Source: Eledone cirrhosa
Lineage: Eukaryota
DNA: 64,000 nucleotides
Assembly: GCA_964016885.1 (NCBI GenBank)
Contig: OZ024756.1
Span: 39,060,001-39,124,000 of the forward strand
Direction of reading: 5' to 3'
Made by a program: the position numbers and the translations under genes. The notes beneath the pieces are model-generated. The model had not been told where the DNA came from. It worked only from the letters and a program-made list of their open reading frames with translations, and searched no databases. Below, one piece after another: positions 2,081 through 62,713 of this stretch. Each line of letters starts with the position of its first letter. The first letter of the stretch is position 1.

Positions 2081-2155
2081 TAAAATAACAGATTAAAGTT
2101 TAAGCAAAGAATCGCTGCTTTCACCCTTAATTTTAGTCTTCAAATTTATTATTAT

Positions 2156-3509: not shown

Positions 3510-3902
<393 letters not shown>

Positions 3903-4699: not shown

Positions 4700-5118
4700 A
4701 AATCATTGTTTACAGTGCTCAGGTGCACTACACCTATCAAAGGTGCATGTATAGTACATAGAATAATGTACAAATGTGAAGAAAGTGGACAGTGTATGAA
4801 ATCATGATATACACACAGATACATGTGTGCGTGTGTATGGGGGAGGAATATCAGGTGTAGTGTTGGCGAATTTCGGGAAGTATGGGCATTTTAAAGGATG
4901 CAGTGTCCTGACAGCTAACAACCGATGCAGGGAGTTTGTTCCATGCTTCAGCAACTCTGAGCGTGAAAAAATGTTTCTAAAAGTCATGGGAGCTGTGCTG
5001 TTTTCTGATTTTATAAGCATGTCCTCGGGTGTTAGACACATGGAATTCAAAAAGGTGCTCAGGGTTGTTGTTGGCAAGATGGTTAATAATTTTGTGGGTC
5101 TCTACCAAATCAGTTGCT
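4700..5118 (-). mobile_element. CR1-like LINE ORF2 C-terminus plus 3' UTR fragment (frameshifted)
   Basis: DLVETHKII..LFEFHVSNTRGHAYKIRKQHSSHDF matches the CR1/L2-type terminal motif DL.E.YKI..TRGH..K. Confidence 0.8.
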
Positions 5119-5145
5119 AGTGCATGTAAGAACGTCTGTGTGTGT

Positions 5146-9621: not shown

Positions 9622-9838
<217 letters not shown>

Positions 9839-12647: not shown

Positions 12648-13063
12648 GCAGAGGTTATATTTAATTTGTTGGGATACAACAAGCTAAATATTTTTATAAC
12701 TGATTATTGGAGTAAATATACAATATATTAACAAATGGAAACTATATTTATAAAACCATATTTATTTCAATATACATATTTCAAGGGCCACCAAAGCAAA
12801 CTATGGTGCGCTTTCATCAGATAAAATATAATATAGGTTAGTTTTATAAATAAATATTGACATACCCTTAAAAAATGCAACCATCCAGGAGATTCCAACC
12901 AGAATGGTTGCATTTTTTAAGGGTATGTCAATATTTATTTATAAAACTAACCTATATTATATTTTATCTGATGAAAGCGCACCATAGTTTGCTTTGGTGG
13001 CCCCTGAAATATGTATATTGAAATAAATATGGTTTTATAAATATAGTTTCCATTTGTTAATAT

Positions 13064-13118: not shown

Positions 13119-13273
13119 CGAAGGAAATGTGGTAAGGAACCAGGTGGACCATAACGCACCAAAGTACTCAATACTTGAGGTAGTAGAGTGGATAATAGGA
13201 ACCAGTAAGACCCCGACAGCTGAGCTCAAGCCGTTTCGACGGCTTGAGCTCAGCTGTCGGGGTCTTACTGGTT

Positions 13274-13278
<5 letters not shown>
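13117..13278. mobile_element. Family F element ending in a perfect ~40-bp hairpin with TTCG loop
   Basis: AGGAACCAGTAAGACCCCGACAGCTGAGCTCAAGCCGT-TTCG-reverse complement; relatives at 33081, 35456, 62593. Confidence 0.8.
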
Positions 13279-14730: not shown

Positions 14731-15525
14731 GTATATATACGTATATGTATGTATGTAAGTATATATATATATATATGTATATATACGTATATGTATGTAT
14801 GTAAGTATATATATATATATATGTATATATACAAACACTTACTGTTTAAACTTTGTGTTTTATTTCAGGTCAACCTTTAACTGATAACCAACAACAGTAA
14901 TTACTCTCATAGAAATCTCTGAAGCATGATTGTCTGAACTTAAGAATTGTCTTATGAATCTTGTTATCTCATTAGACTAAGAAAGAACACAAAAATTAGA
15001 CGAATATCGACATCGGTTACTTGGCAACAGAATATACATTGGCTAAAAACTTTGGCTTTTATCTGGTACTCAGTGTTCCTCTCGTTTTTCATGCCACAAG
15101 TAGCAGATGTCGAAAATAGCTTAATCTGGTCCTCTGGACCATTCGGTATTGTTTAGAAACAAGCTAGAAATAAATATTTGTTGAAAATAGATCATACTTC
15201 ACGTGTAATCATAGCTCAGACCTGGAAGGTGTAGACATCGTGGAGAGGAAAAATAAACAAATTAGCCTGACTGGGGGAAAAAGCAGATGCTTTATATACA
15301 TGAAAATATAATATAGATGTTGTGAAAGTGATATTATAGTAATATATAGTAATATATAGTAGTATATATAGTAATATATATATAGTAATGTATATATAGT
15401 AATATATATATAGTAATGTATATATAGTAATATATATATAGTAATGTATATATAAATGGAAAAGAATGAAATGAAATTTCATTTCTCACTTCTAGCACGG
15501 CTGGTACCCAAACGCAAGCATGTAT

Positions 15526-15861
15526 GTATACGTACATACATATATGCACACAGACGCACAGCAGCATGTATATACATACATACATGCACACACATATATA
15601 TATGTACGTATGGGTCCACCGAACATCCACCATAATGCCCGGTTTGTTTGTAAACAAACAGCCCGAATTACGCCCTACAGTGTTCAGGAAACCATCGTCA
15701 CCTTTTTGAACACTGTAGGGCGTAATTCGGGCTGTTTGTTTACAAACAAACCGAGCATTATGGTGGATGTTCGGTGGACCCATACGTACATATATATGTG
15801 TGTGCATGTATGTATATACATGCTGTTGTGCGTCTGTGTGCATATATGTATGTACGTATAC
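15526..15861. repeat. Long fold-back inverted repeat (arms ~155-160 bp, 20-nt spacer)
   Basis: 15526-15686 is the near-perfect reverse complement of 15707-15861. Confidence 0.9.
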
Positions 15862-16211
15862 CATGTATATATAGTAATATATATACTTTATGTATAAATA
15901 CAAAGGTGGAGTGAAGAACAATTGCTGGTAAGTGTAGATGAAATGAACAAACTGTTGAGAAGGAAACGAAATTACGAGCTGAATATAGGTGAGGTCAGGT
16001 GCAAATCCACGTGATGGTGAAAATCCAAATAGTCTGTCAGGATGTGGTTGTTACAATAACCATCTGTACAACTTTATATTTCTACACTCGCCAGGTGACT
16101 TTGGATTAATTTATTACGCAACAATTCAAGAGACGTTGATAAAATGTAATTTCTGATGAGTAAAAACGAAAATTTGGTTTCGATTCTCATTCATTTCACT
16201 GATACAGTGAA

Positions 16212-17985: not shown

Positions 17986-18119
17986 ATTATTTCTGAAGAC
18001 AGCATATATATGTGTAGGTATGTATATTCCCTGTGATAGTTTGTAAACATTTTACATAGATCTATATGATATACATACCAACACACACACATATATCCTA
18101 GAAACGATCGTAAAATGAT
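17986..18119 (+). ncRNA. Hammerhead ribozyme with long stem II (family A copy 2)
   Basis: ATTATTT-CTGAAGA-long hairpin-GAAAC-GATC-GTA^AAATGAT. Confidence 0.7.
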
Positions 18120-19413: not shown

Positions 19414-19640
19414 TAGTAATAATAATAAATTTGAAGACTAAAATCCAAAGTGGGCTCGATAAGGATAAATATATATCAAATATATAAGAACCGTAGAGTA
19501 AATATTTATTAAAATAACAGATTAAAGTTTAAGCAAAGAATCGCTGCTTTCACGCTTAACGGGATCTTCTGAAGATCCCGTTAAGGGTGAAAGCAGCGAT
19601 TCTTTGCTTAAACTTTAATCTGTTATTTTAATAAATATAT
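19414..19640. mobile_element. Family D palindromic element centred on an HHR-like core
   Basis: Arms 19503-19569 / 19571-19637 around GATCTTC-T-GAAGATC; CTGAAGA-TCCC-GTTAA-GGGT-GAAA. Confidence 0.75.
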
Positions 19641-24494: not shown

Positions 24495-24835
24495 GATAAC
24501 TACCACTTCTTTACAGAAGAGGGCCTTCTCTTCAACGGTGTGCTAAACGGCACTGAGCTCGCATATCACTTCGCAAACCTGTCTCGATCCTGCATACTAT
24601 TTTACAGATGTGAGACACCCGAAGCTCTCGGATAGTCCTGAACGTAACTTCCTCCGTATGTACTCTGATGTGCCGCTTGAGTCCAACAGCAGACCTACAG
24701 GCTTTGTTGCAAAACTGACACAAATACCTCGCAGGCCGTTTGGGGAAGACACCAACATAATCAGCCCTAGACTGCTGAGTGCTGTGAGCTCTTAAATGAC
24801 TAGCAAACCCGCTACGAGAAAGAACAATCCGTTAA
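24495..24835 (-). mobile_element. RTE-type LINE 3' end with C2H2 zinc fingers
   Basis: CQFCNKACRSAVGLKRHIRVH followed by a second degenerate finger and a short 3' UTR. Confidence 0.65.
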
Positions 24836-26630: not shown

Positions 26631-26675
26631 TTCTTGATGATTCCATACGAATGAAACAGTTCTAATACTGTAGAA
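26631..26675 (+). ncRNA. Family E HHR, core variant TTGATGA (probably inactive)
   Basis: TTC-TTGATGA-TTCCATACGAAT-GAAACAG-TTCTAATA-CTGTA^GAA. Confidence 0.55.
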
Positions 26676-27116: not shown

Positions 27117-27152
27117 TCTTAACGTTTCGGACGCTAGTCCTTCATCAGAAGA
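27117..27152 (-). ncRNA. Minimal HHR (family B) in element ~27083-27195
   Basis: Reverse complement TCTT-CTGATGA-AGGAC-TAGC-GTCC-GAAACGTT^AAGA, identical to 48326-48361. Confidence 0.8.
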
Positions 27153-27188: not shown

Positions 27189-27756
<568 letters not shown>

Positions 27757-30243: not shown

Positions 30244-30626
30244 AGTTTTAATATAGATGAGATTCTACAGGACTAGAACTGTTTCATTCATTAGAAATCA
30301 TCAGGAATATAACACACTGCCCGAACTGCATGCACAAGAACTTTGCAACATTCAAACACTTTAAGCCAGTGTTAAAGCCCGATGGCTAAAAACGACCTCC
30401 CCCTATTGGCCCCTGTACCTCCTCCCCACCCTACCCCCACCCCTCCTCAACCTGAAATACGGCCACTATAGTTATATTCCTGATGATGGTTATATTCCTG
30501 ATGATTTCTAATGAATGAAACAGTTCTAGTCCTGTAGAATCTCATCTATATTAAAACTGTTATACTCTGCTATGTATTGAGTACCTTACTTACTGTGGTT
30601 ACCTCCGATTCAACCCGGAATAACGT
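30244..30626. mobile_element. Family E element with inverted HHR arms around an unrelated spacer
   Basis: 30244-30313 is the reverse complement of 30489-30558; 3' tail to 30626; (TA)n flanks. Confidence 0.8.
30494..30540 (+). ncRNA. Hammerhead ribozyme (family E); mirror copy on - at 30262-30308
   Basis: ATTC-CTGATGA-TTTC-TAAT-GAAT-GAAACAG-TTCTAGTC-CTGTA^GAAT. Confidence 0.8.
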
Positions 30627-33816: not shown

Positions 33817-33866
<50 letters not shown>

Positions 33867-33870
33867 TATA

Positions 33871-34377
33871 CGATATTAAATAAATGGAAACTATATTTAT
33901 AAAACCATATTTATTTCATTATATATATTTCAGGGATATCATATTAAAAATATGGTATGCCTTCATCAGACAAAATACAATATAAACAGTCTTATAAATA
34001 AACAGTCTTATAAATAAACAGTCTTATAAACAGTCTTATAAATAAACAGTCTTATAAATAAACAGTCTTATAAATAGATAGATTTGACATACCTTACACT
34101 TCAACTTCCATTTAAAAAGTTGATTTGGAAGTTGAAGTGTAAGGTATGTCAAATCTATCTATTTATAAGACTGTTTATATTGTATTTTGTCTGATGAAGG
34201 CATACCATATTTTTAATATGATATCCCTGAAATATATATAATGAAATAAATATGGTTTTATAAATATAGTTTCCATTTATTTAATATCGTAAATATACTC
34301 CAAATACTTGTTGAGTGCTTTTATATCAGTTATAAATATTTACTCGTTGTAACCCAACAATTTAAATAAAACTTTGC
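33871..34377. mobile_element. Family C palindromic element; HHRs at 33912-33977 (-) and 34183-34248 (+)
   Basis: TATTTTGT-CTGATGA-AGG..ATACCATATT..AATATGATAT..CCT-GAAA-TATATA-TA^ATGAAATA; left arm has a 17-bp tandem expansion. Confidence 0.85.
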
Positions 34378-34539
34378 ATATATATATATATATATATTTT
34401 ATTTTTTTAAATTTATTTATTAAAATAACAGATTAAAGTTTAAGAAAAGAATCGATGCTTTCACCCTTTGCGATTCTTTGCTTCAAATTTAGTATTATTA
34501 CTACACACACACACACATATATATATATATATGTGGGTG

Positions 34540-35343: not shown

Positions 35344-35678
<335 letters not shown>

Positions 35679-36427: not shown

Positions 36428-36746
36428 CACACACACACACACACACACATAATCATATATATAATGTTCATAATCATATATAATGTTATACATTGCTGGC
36501 CATAGGCAAGCCCCTAGCAGAAGTTAAAAGCCACGTCTGTGATGCTTATGCTTAAGTATCAATCGATGGCATTACTCGAAATCGAGTTACAACCATCATA
36601 TAAAGATATGAAGAGACAGAGAAATGTGTGTACGTGTGTGAAATATTTATATAAATATAAGTTATGTGTCATTCAGTGGTTCAAGAATTTTTATGAGATC
36701 AGCAGAGGATGCATACTCACTTACAATTGTGAATCTATATATATAC

Positions 36747-36841
<95 letters not shown>

Positions 36842-36854
36842 CATAAATACATAT

Positions 36855-36903
<49 letters not shown>

Positions 36904-36950
36904 AAGTGACGAAACATAAGTCAATTGCATGAACTCATAATCCTTTATTT

Positions 36951-37006
36951 ACTGCTATATATATTTCGATGATAGCCATTGAATGGCTATGACCTCATCA
37001 GGCAGT
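36951..37006 (-). ncRNA. Hammerhead ribozyme (family I)
   Basis: Reverse complement ACTGC-CTGATGA-GGTC-ATAGCCA-TTCAA-TGGCTAT-CATC-GAAA-TATATA-TA^GCAGT. Confidence 0.85.
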
Positions 37007-37225
37007 TAGTCAGTTCTTAGATATGCCAGCTCTGTGTTCATAGCGTTGATGGTATCAGAGCCTTGGAACATATATATATATATATATATATAGTATTAAG
37101 GATACTATTTATGGTTATGTATATAATAAAACCTTTTATAGTTATATATATTTTAAACTCTAAATAGTGAAAGACAGTAATTCATTACTATCTTATTACC
37201 AGTAAGATAAATAGCTCAATGTAAT

Positions 37226-39042: not shown

Positions 39043-39647
39043 GTCAGGTCACCAGTTGGTGCTACTGGTAACATGTATCCCAGTACAACCTGTCTCATGG
39101 TCGGGTCGTTGGCGACTAAACTGGCAACCCCACCAAGGTTTCTTGGTGAGGAGGGTGACTTTGGACATCCTGCAGGACAAAAAAAAAAACCTGCCAAAGG
39201 CCAAAGGAGCTCTTAAGAGTCAATGGCCATCCAAAATCACCAGGAGAGATGACCCCTTAGCTTTTGTCAGAATTCTAGGAGAAGGAAAACTCTGATATAA
39301 CACCTGCAACCTTGATGGTATCCAATGATGTTGACTTGTTCTTCTTTTTGGTAAATATCATCTTGGTTAAGAGAGTGGGACTGGCTTTGTGTAGTGCCTT
39401 TGCTCACTATAAAAGCTTCACAGCACAGGCATTGCTTTATATCTGGAGATCTCTCTGCACTTGTCGTCACATGGTACCATGAGCCCAGCACTATGTGTCA
39501 ATAATTGTCACAAGTGTAGTGTTTGTACCAGAGTTTTCAAGTCGCTGGCTGGACTAAAACGTCACACTCGTTCAGCGTATCGGTAGGGGTTCTCTTACAT
39601 GGATATAAAGTAGTGGCCGTACTCGAAAACGAGTTTGCAGCCACCAT
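39043..39647 (+). mobile_element. Bipartite non-autonomous RTE-derived element (5' UTR-like part plus C2H2 3' end)
   Basis: GGAGAAGGAAAACTC motif; HKCSVCTRVFKSLAGLKRHTRSAYR* at 39509-39586; (ATGT)n tail. Confidence 0.7.
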
Positions 39648-39760: not shown

Positions 39761-40173
39761 CCGGGAGAGATGACCCCTTAGCCTTTGTCAAGGCAGAATT
39801 CTAGGAGAAGGAAAACTCTGATATAACACCTGCAACCCTGATGGTATCCAATGATGTTGACTTGTTCTTCTTTTTGGTAAATATCATCTTGGTTAAGAGA
39901 GTGGGACTGGCTTTGTGCAGTGCCTTTGCTCACTATAAAAGCTTCATGGCACAGGCATTGCTTTATATCTGGAGATCTCTCTGCACTTGTCGTCACATGG
40001 TACCATGGGCCCAGCACTATGTGTCAATAATTGTCACAAGTGTAGTGTTAGTACCAGAGTTTTCAAGTCGCTGGCTGGACTAAAAAGTCACACTCGTTCA
40101 GCGCATCGGTAGGAGTTCTCCTACATGGATATAAAGTAGTGGCCGTACTCGAAAACGAGTTGGCAGCCACCAT
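39761..40173 (+). mobile_element. Second, 5'-truncated tandem copy of the same element
   Basis: Highly similar to 39239-39647. Confidence 0.85.
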
Positions 40174-40198: not shown

Positions 40199-40745
<547 letters not shown>

Positions 40746-43473: not shown

Positions 43474-44778
43474 TATTTAGCAATGTTTAAATATTGCCAA
43501 CACAAGAGCAAGAATGATGGGGGTCATTCTACTGACGTGGCTTAAGAGGCTGTTTGCATAATTGAAAACGAATCGAATATTATTATTAATATTTAAAAAC
43601 TCAGATTTACATTTCTAGTGTTCAGCCATGTTGAGCGATAAAACTATTTGTTAATTATTCATAAAAATAAAATCTTAACGAAGAACTACTTACTTATATG
43701 ATTATAAACATTATGATTATGAATATAACATATGATTATGAATACCATGAAAAGGGCCATTATCTACACTTTAATAGCAAGCAAGTTCCATCATCATATA
43801 TTTTTTTTTATATAATCCCTGACCAAAATCCACTTGAAGTCAACAAGAAAACAAAACTCCGCAAAGGAAAACAAACCGAGTCTAGATTCCGTCAATTTAT
43901 CTCCTCAATCATTGGACGGTTTTCAATCTATTCCACCCTACTAGAAATAACAAATTATCGTAAGAAATTACGAAAATAAATATTAGTACACGTGATGTAA
44001 TTGTTAGAGACATGTGATGTAAGTGTTAAAGACACGTGATGTAAATTAGAAAATACGCCAGTGACTGCTTCCGTATGATAGTGTTAAAACAATATATACG
44101 AATTACATTTTATTTTGAAATAATTCTCCCGATCAAATTAGAACTTAGACTCTTTGAGGGGAGAAACTAAATTATGGAAGGTATTTAGACATACGGCCAG
44201 TTCTAAAAATTTAACATTCTATTTACATAAGCCATATAAAATGTAACACTTCATCCATTAATATGGTGAATGGCGGTGAAGTGTAGAATGGAGGGTGAAA
44301 CGTTTATGGTCTGAAGCGAAAAATATTACAAAGTAATATCTTTATCAAGAAATAAAATTTCAAATTTATTAGTAGCCTGTAGAAAAATAAAACAAAAGGA
44401 AAGAAAAAATTCACAAACAAACTCTATAGTTAGCAAGGAAAAAGAACATTAAAATTAAGTCTACATATTTGATATGCAGTTGTAAAGTATATAGTTATAA
44501 AGTGTGTATATTTGATATATAGTTATAAAATAGAGTTACGTAAGAGCAACATGTGACTATAACATCAGGTGTCTTGGCGAAGATTTGGGAGGTTCCTATC
44601 TAAATAATGCAAGTACTTATGAGAAAACATAAAAATGAGAAACGAACTGTTTTAGAGAAATGATATCCTTAGAAATATCAGTTAAATAAACGTTGAATAA
44701 ATTAATATAATTATGGTTGTTATATGAAAAGTGATGCGCACAAAGACTCACGCGCACACATATATAAACATATATATA

Positions 44779-44853
44779 CAGGGTGTCCCAAAAATGTATA
44801 CACGCTTCAACAGCATTCTAATAAATATGTGTATACATTCTTTTGGGTCACCT

Positions 44854-44855
<2 letters not shown>
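44779..44855. mobile_element. Tiny Tc1-type MITE
   Basis: TA-CAGGGTGTCCCAAAA..TTTTGGGTCACCTTG-TA. Confidence 0.8.
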
Positions 44856-44908
<53 letters not shown>

Positions 44909-48325: not shown

Positions 48326-48361
48326 TCTTCTGATGAAGGACTAGCGTCCGAAACGTTAAGA
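48326..48361 (+). ncRNA. Minimal HHR (family B) in element ~48255-48400
   Basis: TCTT-CTGATGA-AGGAC-TAGC-GTCC-GAAACGTT^AAGA. Confidence 0.82.
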
Positions 48362-55998: not shown

Positions 55999-56056
55999 AT
56001 ATATATAAAATAAAGTTAAATAAAAGTCAAATGATTAAAATTTAGCTTCGTTTATT

Positions 56057-56111
56057 ACTGCTATATATATTTCAGTGACAGCCATCTTTGGCTGTGACCT
56101 CTTCAGGCAGT
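56057..56111 (-). ncRNA. Hammerhead ribozyme (family I copy 2)
   Basis: Reverse complement ACTGC-CTGAAGA-GGTC-ACAGCCA-AAGA-TGGCTGT-CACT-GAAA-TATATA-TA^GCAGT. Confidence 0.85.
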
Positions 56112-56161
56112 TTGAATTAGTATGGTATAGACAAGTACATATGTTGTTTAGGTGTATGATA

Positions 56162-56210
<49 letters not shown>

Positions 56211-57043: not shown

Positions 57044-57104
57044 TATTTTATCTGATGAAAGCGTACCAAAGTTTTGGTACCCTTGAAATATATATAATAG
57101 AATA
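57044..57104 (+). ncRNA. Hammerhead ribozyme (family C, diverged subfamily) in element ~57010-57240
   Basis: TATTTTAT-CTGATGA-AAG-C-GTACCAAA..TTTGGTAC-C-CTT-GAAA-TATATA-TA^ATAGAATA. Confidence 0.82.
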
Positions 57105-62595: not shown

Positions 62596-62713
62596 AAGAG
62601 AGTCAGGACCCCGACGGCTGAGCTCCGGCTGTTTCGACAGCTAGGTCCACCAAACAGTTCGGATCCAGCTGTCGAAACGGCCAGAGCTCAGCCGTCGGGG
62701 TCCTGACTCTTTT

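Follow-up and report, generated by a model that had tools for sequence, protein, structure and literature searches.

Two hammerhead motifs between TA runs

The window (the whole 64-kb stretch of DNA that was analysed) has a G+C content of 27–41% and is crowded with (TA)n, other simple repeats and recurring SINE-like repeats, which we take to resemble octopus SINEs. No long coding frame was found in it outside the simple repeats, and no tRNA genes. Two complete type I hammerhead motifs, termed Ia and Ib (family I), are located on its minus strand (Table 1). In minus-strand order Ia reads ACTGC-CTGATGA-GGTCATAGCCA-TTCAA-TGGCTATCATC-GAAA-TATATATA-GCAGT, and Ib reads ACTGC-CTGAAGA-GGTCACAGCCA-AAGA-TGGCTGTCACT-GAAA-TATATATA-GCAGT. 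The core (C3 U4 G5 A6 N7 G8 A9, G12 A13 A14, the pair A15.1-U16.1 and H17) is complete in both copies, and H17 is A. An earlier sequence-only reading had stated that stem I (ACTGC/GCAGT) and GAAA-TATATATA are the same at 36951-37006 and 56057-56111, and the minus-strand reading confirmed this.

Table 1. Positions of the hammerhead copies, their parts and related features in the window
Feature	Position	Strand	Basis or remark
Copy Ia, type I hammerhead motif	36951-37006	-	motif pattern, fold model
Ia stem I	37006-37002 with 36955-36951	-	
Ia core CTGATGA	37001-36995	-	
Ia stem II, loop TTCAA	36994-36968	-	3 bp + C×C + 7 bp
Ia GAAA	36967-36964	-	
Ia palindromic helix III	36964-36957	-	
Ia A17 and predicted cut	36956; cut between 36956/36955	-	triplet AUA
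Ia 3' tail	36904-36950	-	AATAAA at 36949-36944; covered by many contigs of run X1
Ia upstream family sequence	37007-37070	-	TA run at border; covered by X1 contigs and X19 reads
(TA)n-rich tract at Ia 3' end	36736-36903	.	strand unassigned
TA run at Ia 5' end	37071-37092	.	strand unassigned
Copy Ib, type I hammerhead motif	56057-56111	-	
Ib core CTGAAGA	56106-56100	-	
Ib stem II, loop AAGA	56099-56074	-	closing pair G·U
Ib GAAA	56073-56070	-	
Ib predicted cut	between 56062/56061	-	
Ib 3' tail	56007-56056	-	AATAAA at 56056-56051
Ib upstream sequence	56112-56164	-	alignment to Ia at chance level; TA run at border
Family II hammerhead	27418-27482	+	3 bp + C×C + stem; helix III ATATGTAT
Family II hammerhead, short arm	33912-33977	-	inverted pair with 34183-34248; ends about +49 to +57
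Family II hammerhead, long arm	34183-34248	+	pair with 33912-33977; ends about +137
Family II hammerhead, single arm	57044-57104	+	ends about +137
Family II hammerhead, long arm of inverted pair	12763-12828	-	covariance model, outside training set
Family II hammerhead, short arm	12960-13025	+	pair with 12763-12828; outside training set
Hairpin-helix III family, first	19531-19609, 40335-40375, 2102-2122		
Hairpin-helix III family, second	26653-26672, 30266-30536, 9742-9761		
Hairpin-helix III family, third	35554-35629, 62674-62696		

The window has two matches to the family I motif pattern, and 100 dinucleotide shuffles yielded no match. The plus strand was considered as the ribozyme strand and rejected; it folds too, but lacks the core. 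Neither copy was matched by the Rfam hammerhead models at the gathering score or at E values up to 10, and the only Rfam matches were microRNA models driven by microsatellites. The hammerheads underlying these Rfam models close helix III as a true hairpin.

The (TA)n is reached 52 nt (Ia) and 54 nt (Ib) beyond the predicted cut, and AATAAA lies 5–6 nt beyond it in both copies. Each copy therefore forms a repeat of some 160–170 nt bounded by TA runs. The TA run bordering the upstream sequence of Ia is likely the 5' truncation point. The flanks of the two copies had been described as divergent. This is true upstream, where 28 of 67 positions are identical and 128 of 500 shuffles did as well, but only in part downstream, where the flanks are equal in length and identical at 31 of 51 positions (matched by 1 of 500 shuffles).

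Words from the Ia stretch were present in 11 of 21 public sequencing runs, and none of these 11 is on record as RNA, which carries no information on expression. Four runs were compared with the stretch. Run X1 has 708 contigs on it, with depth in all 28 bins, and run X19 has 2133 raw reads on it, of which 136 continue beyond 37065 in other sequence; runs X2 and X13 gave no records, which is no evidence either way. Family sequence thus extends over all 166 nt, and the "flanks" of Ia are part of the element. In 46 X19 reads the match is clipped at the loop and followed by the exact loop, stem and core of Ib (window 56086-56111), so that Ib is a genuine subfamily whose differences are fixed. Over the 3' arm of stem II, Ib-type letters make up about one-third of the depth in X1. 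The C-to-U form has a depth of 51k, versus 142k and 141k for the other two Ib-type letters in stem II, and we infer from this lower depth that part of Ib probably has a G-C closing pair. Depth is not a copy number, and the run data are therefore taken only to mean that Ia and Ib are both multi-copy.

The frequent X1 variant at 36973 was considered as a U·G intermediate of the compensatory change, and this was rejected. The records are Ib-type, as seen from the fall in X1 depth from 409k to 277k at the loop and from the X19 reads clipped with Ib sequence. Run X9, labelled as a wastewater metagenome, holds a fraction of 0.58 of the sampled Ia words, and five differently coded organisms hold at least 0.67. 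Thirteen bases in the upstream sequence of Ia (37050-37062, plus strand) resemble a primer-binding site for plant initiator Met-tRNA and are nearly invariant in X1. Given an animal element and the strand, this likeness is probably due to chance.

Variation within family I and its relatives

Ia and Ib are identical at 47 of the 56 columns of the motif. The eight substitutions are found at core position 7, at four sites in stem II and at three in the loop, which also has one gap. The differences listed in the sequence-only reading were recovered: the variable core position, position 7, is T in Ia and A in Ib, the loop is TTCAA versus AAGA, and the T-A pair of stem II in Ia (36989/36973) is replaced by C-G in Ib (56094/56079). 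Stem II is longer than that reading described, with 3 bp, a C×C mismatch and 7 bp, and carries two more changes. These are the two innermost bases of the 3' side, which give G-C/G·U in Ia versus G·U/G-C in Ib, and both of them keep the pairing.

The chance of such a pattern was calculated by placing four random changes over the 20 paired sites of the ten stem II pairs. All ten pairs are kept by chance in 726 of 4845 cases (15%) with transitions only and in 3.5% at ts:tv 2:1, and the chance of a double change is 9%. The single compensatory pair across two copies is weak evidence and is not significant on its own. None of the eight substitutions lies within the 28 columns of the core, stem I and helix III (p about 0.002, a value inflated because Ia and Ib were picked by that same motif).

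A motif scan of the window gave four motifs of a second family (family II), with the same layout of 3 bp, C×C and stem as family I. The palindrome is equal or near-equal to that of family I, with an overlapping AATAAA, and stem II is closed by A-U. Helix III is TATGTATA in three of the eight copies of families I and II. For covariation we aligned Ia, Ib and three family II copies; the copy at 33920 was omitted since it is identical to that at 34191. In the five-sequence alignment 97.9% of the cells are paired and 12 of the 19 pairs show double changes, while slid-register controls reach 28–47% paired. On four of five measures none of 500 shuffles scored as high (107 of 500 on the fifth); the basis is five related sequences from about three lineages, and relatedness alone can beat shuffles. 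Within this family I and II alignment, the covariation analysis suggested at the outset holds for the hammerhead fold, and conservation is centred on the fold.

A covariance model built from the alignment scored eight copies at 59.6–83.7 bits, and the next match at 16.9 bits. These eight comprise the five training sequences, one copy identical to a training copy and two new ones (12763-12828 and 12960-13025). As a control, bare-core matches were collected from other sources. A stem I of at least 4 bp together with a stable stem II was seen in 0 of 120 viral matches and in 0 of 115 from metagenomes, the latter drawn from 7 of the 64 parts of the collection. With the covariance model, 100 of the 115 metagenome loci were scored and none exceeded 23.9 bits; the clade-specific pattern was present in none of the metagenome stretches.

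In the left arm (27240-27296) of the family II insertion at 27240-27612, the upstream sequence is joined straight to the tail and the hammerhead is gone, apparently lost between two short TTTATAAA repeats. In one arm of the inverted pair at 33863-34378, about six repeats of a 16-nt unit immediately precede the hammerhead (33981-34074). The other arm does not have them.

Predicted dimer fold and cleavage

Helix III is ATATATAT in both copies, an 8-nt self-complementary palindrome with no hairpin closure within one molecule. It had been taken for a (TA) microsatellite, but it comprises just four TA units. The proposed dimer mode of action is supported by the model, in which the predicted dimer has eight intermolecular helix III pairs. 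Lunse et al. 2017 reportedly described the dimer cleavage of hammerheads.

The energy of the modelled active dimer is lower than that of two monomers by 5.0 (Ia), 5.8 (Ib) and 5.4 (Ia+Ib) kcal/mol. The mixed Ia+Ib dimer has a modelled energy of -35.8 kcal/mol, versus -34.4 and -37.2 kcal/mol for the pure dimers. In modelled pairs of family I with family II most of stem I is lost and nothing is gained. The minimum-energy dimers are not in the active fold; they are lower by 2.8 (Ia) and 5.6 (Ib) kcal/mol. In the model of the Ia monomer the core is buried in stem II. The (UA)4 helix III, at -3.2 kcal/mol, is among the eight weakest of the 64 possible palindromes. The pair that closes stem II, conserved as G10.1-C11.1, is G-C in Ia and G·U in Ib. 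The AUA triplet is described as slow in one review (PMC3138052), and weak, dimer-dependent and possibly protein-assisted cleavage has been published for minimal hammerheads (PMC4209133, PMC11167929).

In the mechanism that we propose, two copies, on one transcript or on two, would pair through their palindromes to give a helix III of 8 bp, with an exchange of partners between the stem I arms. As stem I would then be paired between the partners, cleavage after A17 of each molecule would be carried out by the core of the other, as in the double-hammerhead model (PMC4209133). The cut after the AUA triplet would be weak and would occur only in pairs.

Stem I might also serve as a family address, and (UA)4 as a weak shared clasp, such that the sister subfamilies Ia and Ib cut each other in trans. 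We consider this extension of the model unlikely. Ia and Ib agree in all 18 intermolecular bases and differ at seven sites in stem II and its loop. If cross-subfamily cutting were true, the 5' product would be a ready trans-acting ribozyme against family copies in host transcripts; if it took place in cells, natural trans-acting ribozymes would arise from a repeat of high copy number. Ia and Ib constitute a natural test set, with equal intermolecular stems and unlike stem II, and family II is a built-in incompatible control.

Probable parent element and the TA-like helix III

By most testable features Ia and Ib are likely dimer-type minimal hammerheads of the Penelope-like/retrozyme group, which is a known and common kind. 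Minimal hammerheads have a helix I of 4–5 bp, a long helix II and a palindromic helix III, are mostly found singly and show weak cleavage in dimeric form (PMC4209133). The metazoan Penelope-like set of Cervera and de la Pena 2014 (PMC4209133) has in common with Ia and Ib the type I topology, the intact core, a 5-bp helix I, the long helix II, the palindromic helix III, an AU-rich 3' flank and an occurrence as dispersed single copies in many families. In the text of its 56-row alignment (machine-extracted from the PDF), six rows have AUAUAU and five have AUAU as helix III, and two have the AUA triplet. The closest rows are those of Drosophila Penelope, with an AUAUAU helix III, of D. willistoni and Schmidtea, which share the AUA triplet of Ia and Ib, and of shrimp and Saccoglossus(2), which are like Ia and Ib in having no extra base after A9 and in having A17. 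The extra unpaired base between A9 and 10.1 is absent from all five aligned copies; the published consensus has it, and two of the 56 rows do not.

Ia and Ib also differ from the published set. The 8-nt alternating AU helix III is found in none of the 56 rows, the longest alternating one having 6 nt; the C×C mismatch after 3 bp of helix II is fixed; and Ib has a G·U closure (PMC4209133). The 8-nt AU palindrome was not found in the literature searched, the 56 rows included, although Lunse et al. 2017 and bioRxiv supplements may list it. Family I is a further clade for the known catalogue, marked by the 8-nt alternating AU helix III and the fixed C×C in helix II.

All eight copies of families I and II end at least 49 nt beyond the cut site. 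In the two inverted pairs of family II the short arm ends at about +49 to +57 and the long arm at about +132 to +138. Both family I copies end in the range of the short arm, and each is single-armed, with no inverted second arm. Family I has the TA target and the fixed end, and the inverted arm and the two ends are seen only in its sister family II. Penelope-like insertions are described with a (TA)n bias (Neptune/Naiad), an inverted 5'-truncated arm and a one-sided tail (Craig et al. 2021, PMC8557442). Their TA location, strong 5' truncation and fixed 3' end past the hammerhead are as in family I (PMC8557442, PMC11167929). The inverted arms and two ends of family II are also as in these insertions, but its tail is about 85 nt, compared with the 30–40 nt described, and the single-armed copies of family I are unlike the inverted-arm insertions (PMC8557442). 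A conserved hairpin in the tail was considered and rejected, as z ranged between -2.4 and +1.2 in the six tails examined.

We consider it likely that Ia and Ib are 3' ends, truncated on their 5' side, that belong to two sister subfamilies of a Penelope-type retroelement or of its non-coding derivative. Self-cleavage of the RNA of this element, in pairs, is predicted. A Penelope-type RT/GIY-YIG protein would nick TA repeats and write the DNA copies; its template would be RNA that is uncut or has been re-joined, with a start of copying about 50 nt past the motif. On this view the TA-like helix III would be one weak palindrome among many and would have no part in target choice. In the anole Poseidon element, reverse transcription begins at internal positions of the RNA, beyond the hammerhead, that are not homologous to the target (Frangieh et al. 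2024, PMC11167929), and mutation of the hammerhead does not prevent insertion (PMC11167929). Both studies describe the role of hammerheads in Penelope-like elements as open (PMC8557442, PMC11167929).

Whether the family I copies are ends of a coding element or of a non-coding retrozyme is roughly evenly balanced. The retrozyme, for which we would put the chance somewhat short of even, would be a short RNA, tandem or circular and a few hundred bases long, that Penelope proteins mobilise in trans, with the copies as truncated monomers. Animal non-LTR retrozymes (Cervera and de la Pena 2020, PMC7229834; Li, Clavereau and Pollet 2026, bioRxiv 10.64898/2026.07.22.740005) have a non-coding context, a type I hammerhead and many copies, as family I does. 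Dimer-dependent variants are known among the published type I hammerhead retrozymes (PMC7229834), and retrozymes derive from Penelope terminal repeats (bioRxiv 10.64898/2026.07.22.740005). There is no coding remnant beside Ia or Ib, and no RT or GIY-YIG frame was detected with Pfam in the 300 longest of the 355 open segments. However, the copies keep only 60–70 nt of upstream sequence, which is too short to reveal a frame either way. Family I is unlike retrozymes in that neither a head-to-tail monomer nor a tandem copy of either subfamily was found in the window, and published retrozymes mostly have canonical hammerheads, the minimal ones being tied to Penelope-like elements (PMC7229834).

It is improbable that Ia and Ib descend from a ribozyme that no longer cuts, with the sequence kept by descent or protein binding. 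The predicted misfolding, the G·U closure of Ib and the weak helix III would fit such dead relics, as would the report that eight of nine retrozyme dimers gave no cleavage product in one study (bioRxiv 10.64898/2026.07.22.740005) and the finding that hammerhead cleavage is dispensable for insertion in vitro (PMC11167929). However, the 28 columns of the core, stem I and helix III carry no substitution while the upstream flank has diverged to chance level, which argues that selection acted on the fold at the family level. The two genomic copies themselves may be inactive.

The sequence-only reading had pointed to a likeness between the cleavage region and the genomic target. That helix III matters because of this likeness is not supported: the copies end well past the cut, and motifs with a non-TA helix III lie equally close to TA tracts. 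It is very unlikely that (UA)4 was kept for its likeness to TA, with the cleaved 3' end UAUAUAUA priming on nicked (TA)n DNA or the ribozyme cutting (UA)n RNA in trans. In favour of this idea, (UA)4 does stand at the end of the predicted 5' cleavage product, families I and II keep the palindrome though stem I has fully turned over, and all eight copies lie within 150 nt of a TA tract. However, 13 of 16 hand-picked motifs with a non-TA helix III also lie within 150 nt of one (no difference between the two groups, Mann–Whitney p=0.27; 24% for random positions), and since the arms of one insertion are not independent these counts overstate n. Of the 16 motifs, two are full motifs from a relaxed list, from which three rows, likely chance matches, were dropped, and 14 are from 21 rows of 3' halves. 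None of the seven 3' halves dropped recurs at a second site, and the kept row at 3641 is also single.

None of the eight copies ends at the cut site, and X1 depth is continuous over it (bins of 548k, 591k and 552k). No site in the window has the core followed by GAAA and at least five TA units, three of the eight copies carry the TATGTATA form, and AUAUAU or AUAU is already the helix III of 11 of the 56 published rows (PMC4209133). Trans-cleavage, for which the same reading had suggested a test, is not supported for bare (UA)n RNA, as in the computed pairing this substrate gives no stem I with the family I arm. Among 3748 candidate trans substrates in the window, a stem I of 5 bp is formed by two sites (the copies themselves), of at least 4 bp by three and of at least 3 bp by 11. 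That both families keep the palindrome can be attributed to shared descent and to the double cost of changing a self-pairing palindrome. An example of a palindrome other than (UA)4 is ACGAUCGU.

Further motifs of hammerhead type are present in the window. Those at 27121-27148 (minus strand) and 48330-48357 (plus strand) are hammerhead-like, with the non-TA palindromic helix III ACGT and the classic extra base after A9. On the plus strand, 3' halves with the non-TA palindromic helix III ACGATCGT and ACTCGAGT are found at 1808-1819, 18101-18112 and 3641-3652. Three recurring families have a true hairpin helix III (Table 1). They are often truncated inside the core, and several form inverted pairs within TA tracts, with the arms facing outward. 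Several inverted repeats, perfect or nearly so, with TA runs at their sides (15496-15897, 13178-13278 and 44760-44874) are possibly further two-armed insertions with no surviving hammerhead. A short broken frame at 4800-5120 on the minus strand, for which Pfam gave no match, resembles the C-terminus of LINE proteins of the CR1/L2 type. Single segments resembling C2H2 zinc fingers, with scores under the Pfam cut-offs, are present at 24535-24831 (minus strand) and 39413-39583 (plus strand). The latter sits in a 405-nt tandem duplication (39240-39644 and 39761-40170).
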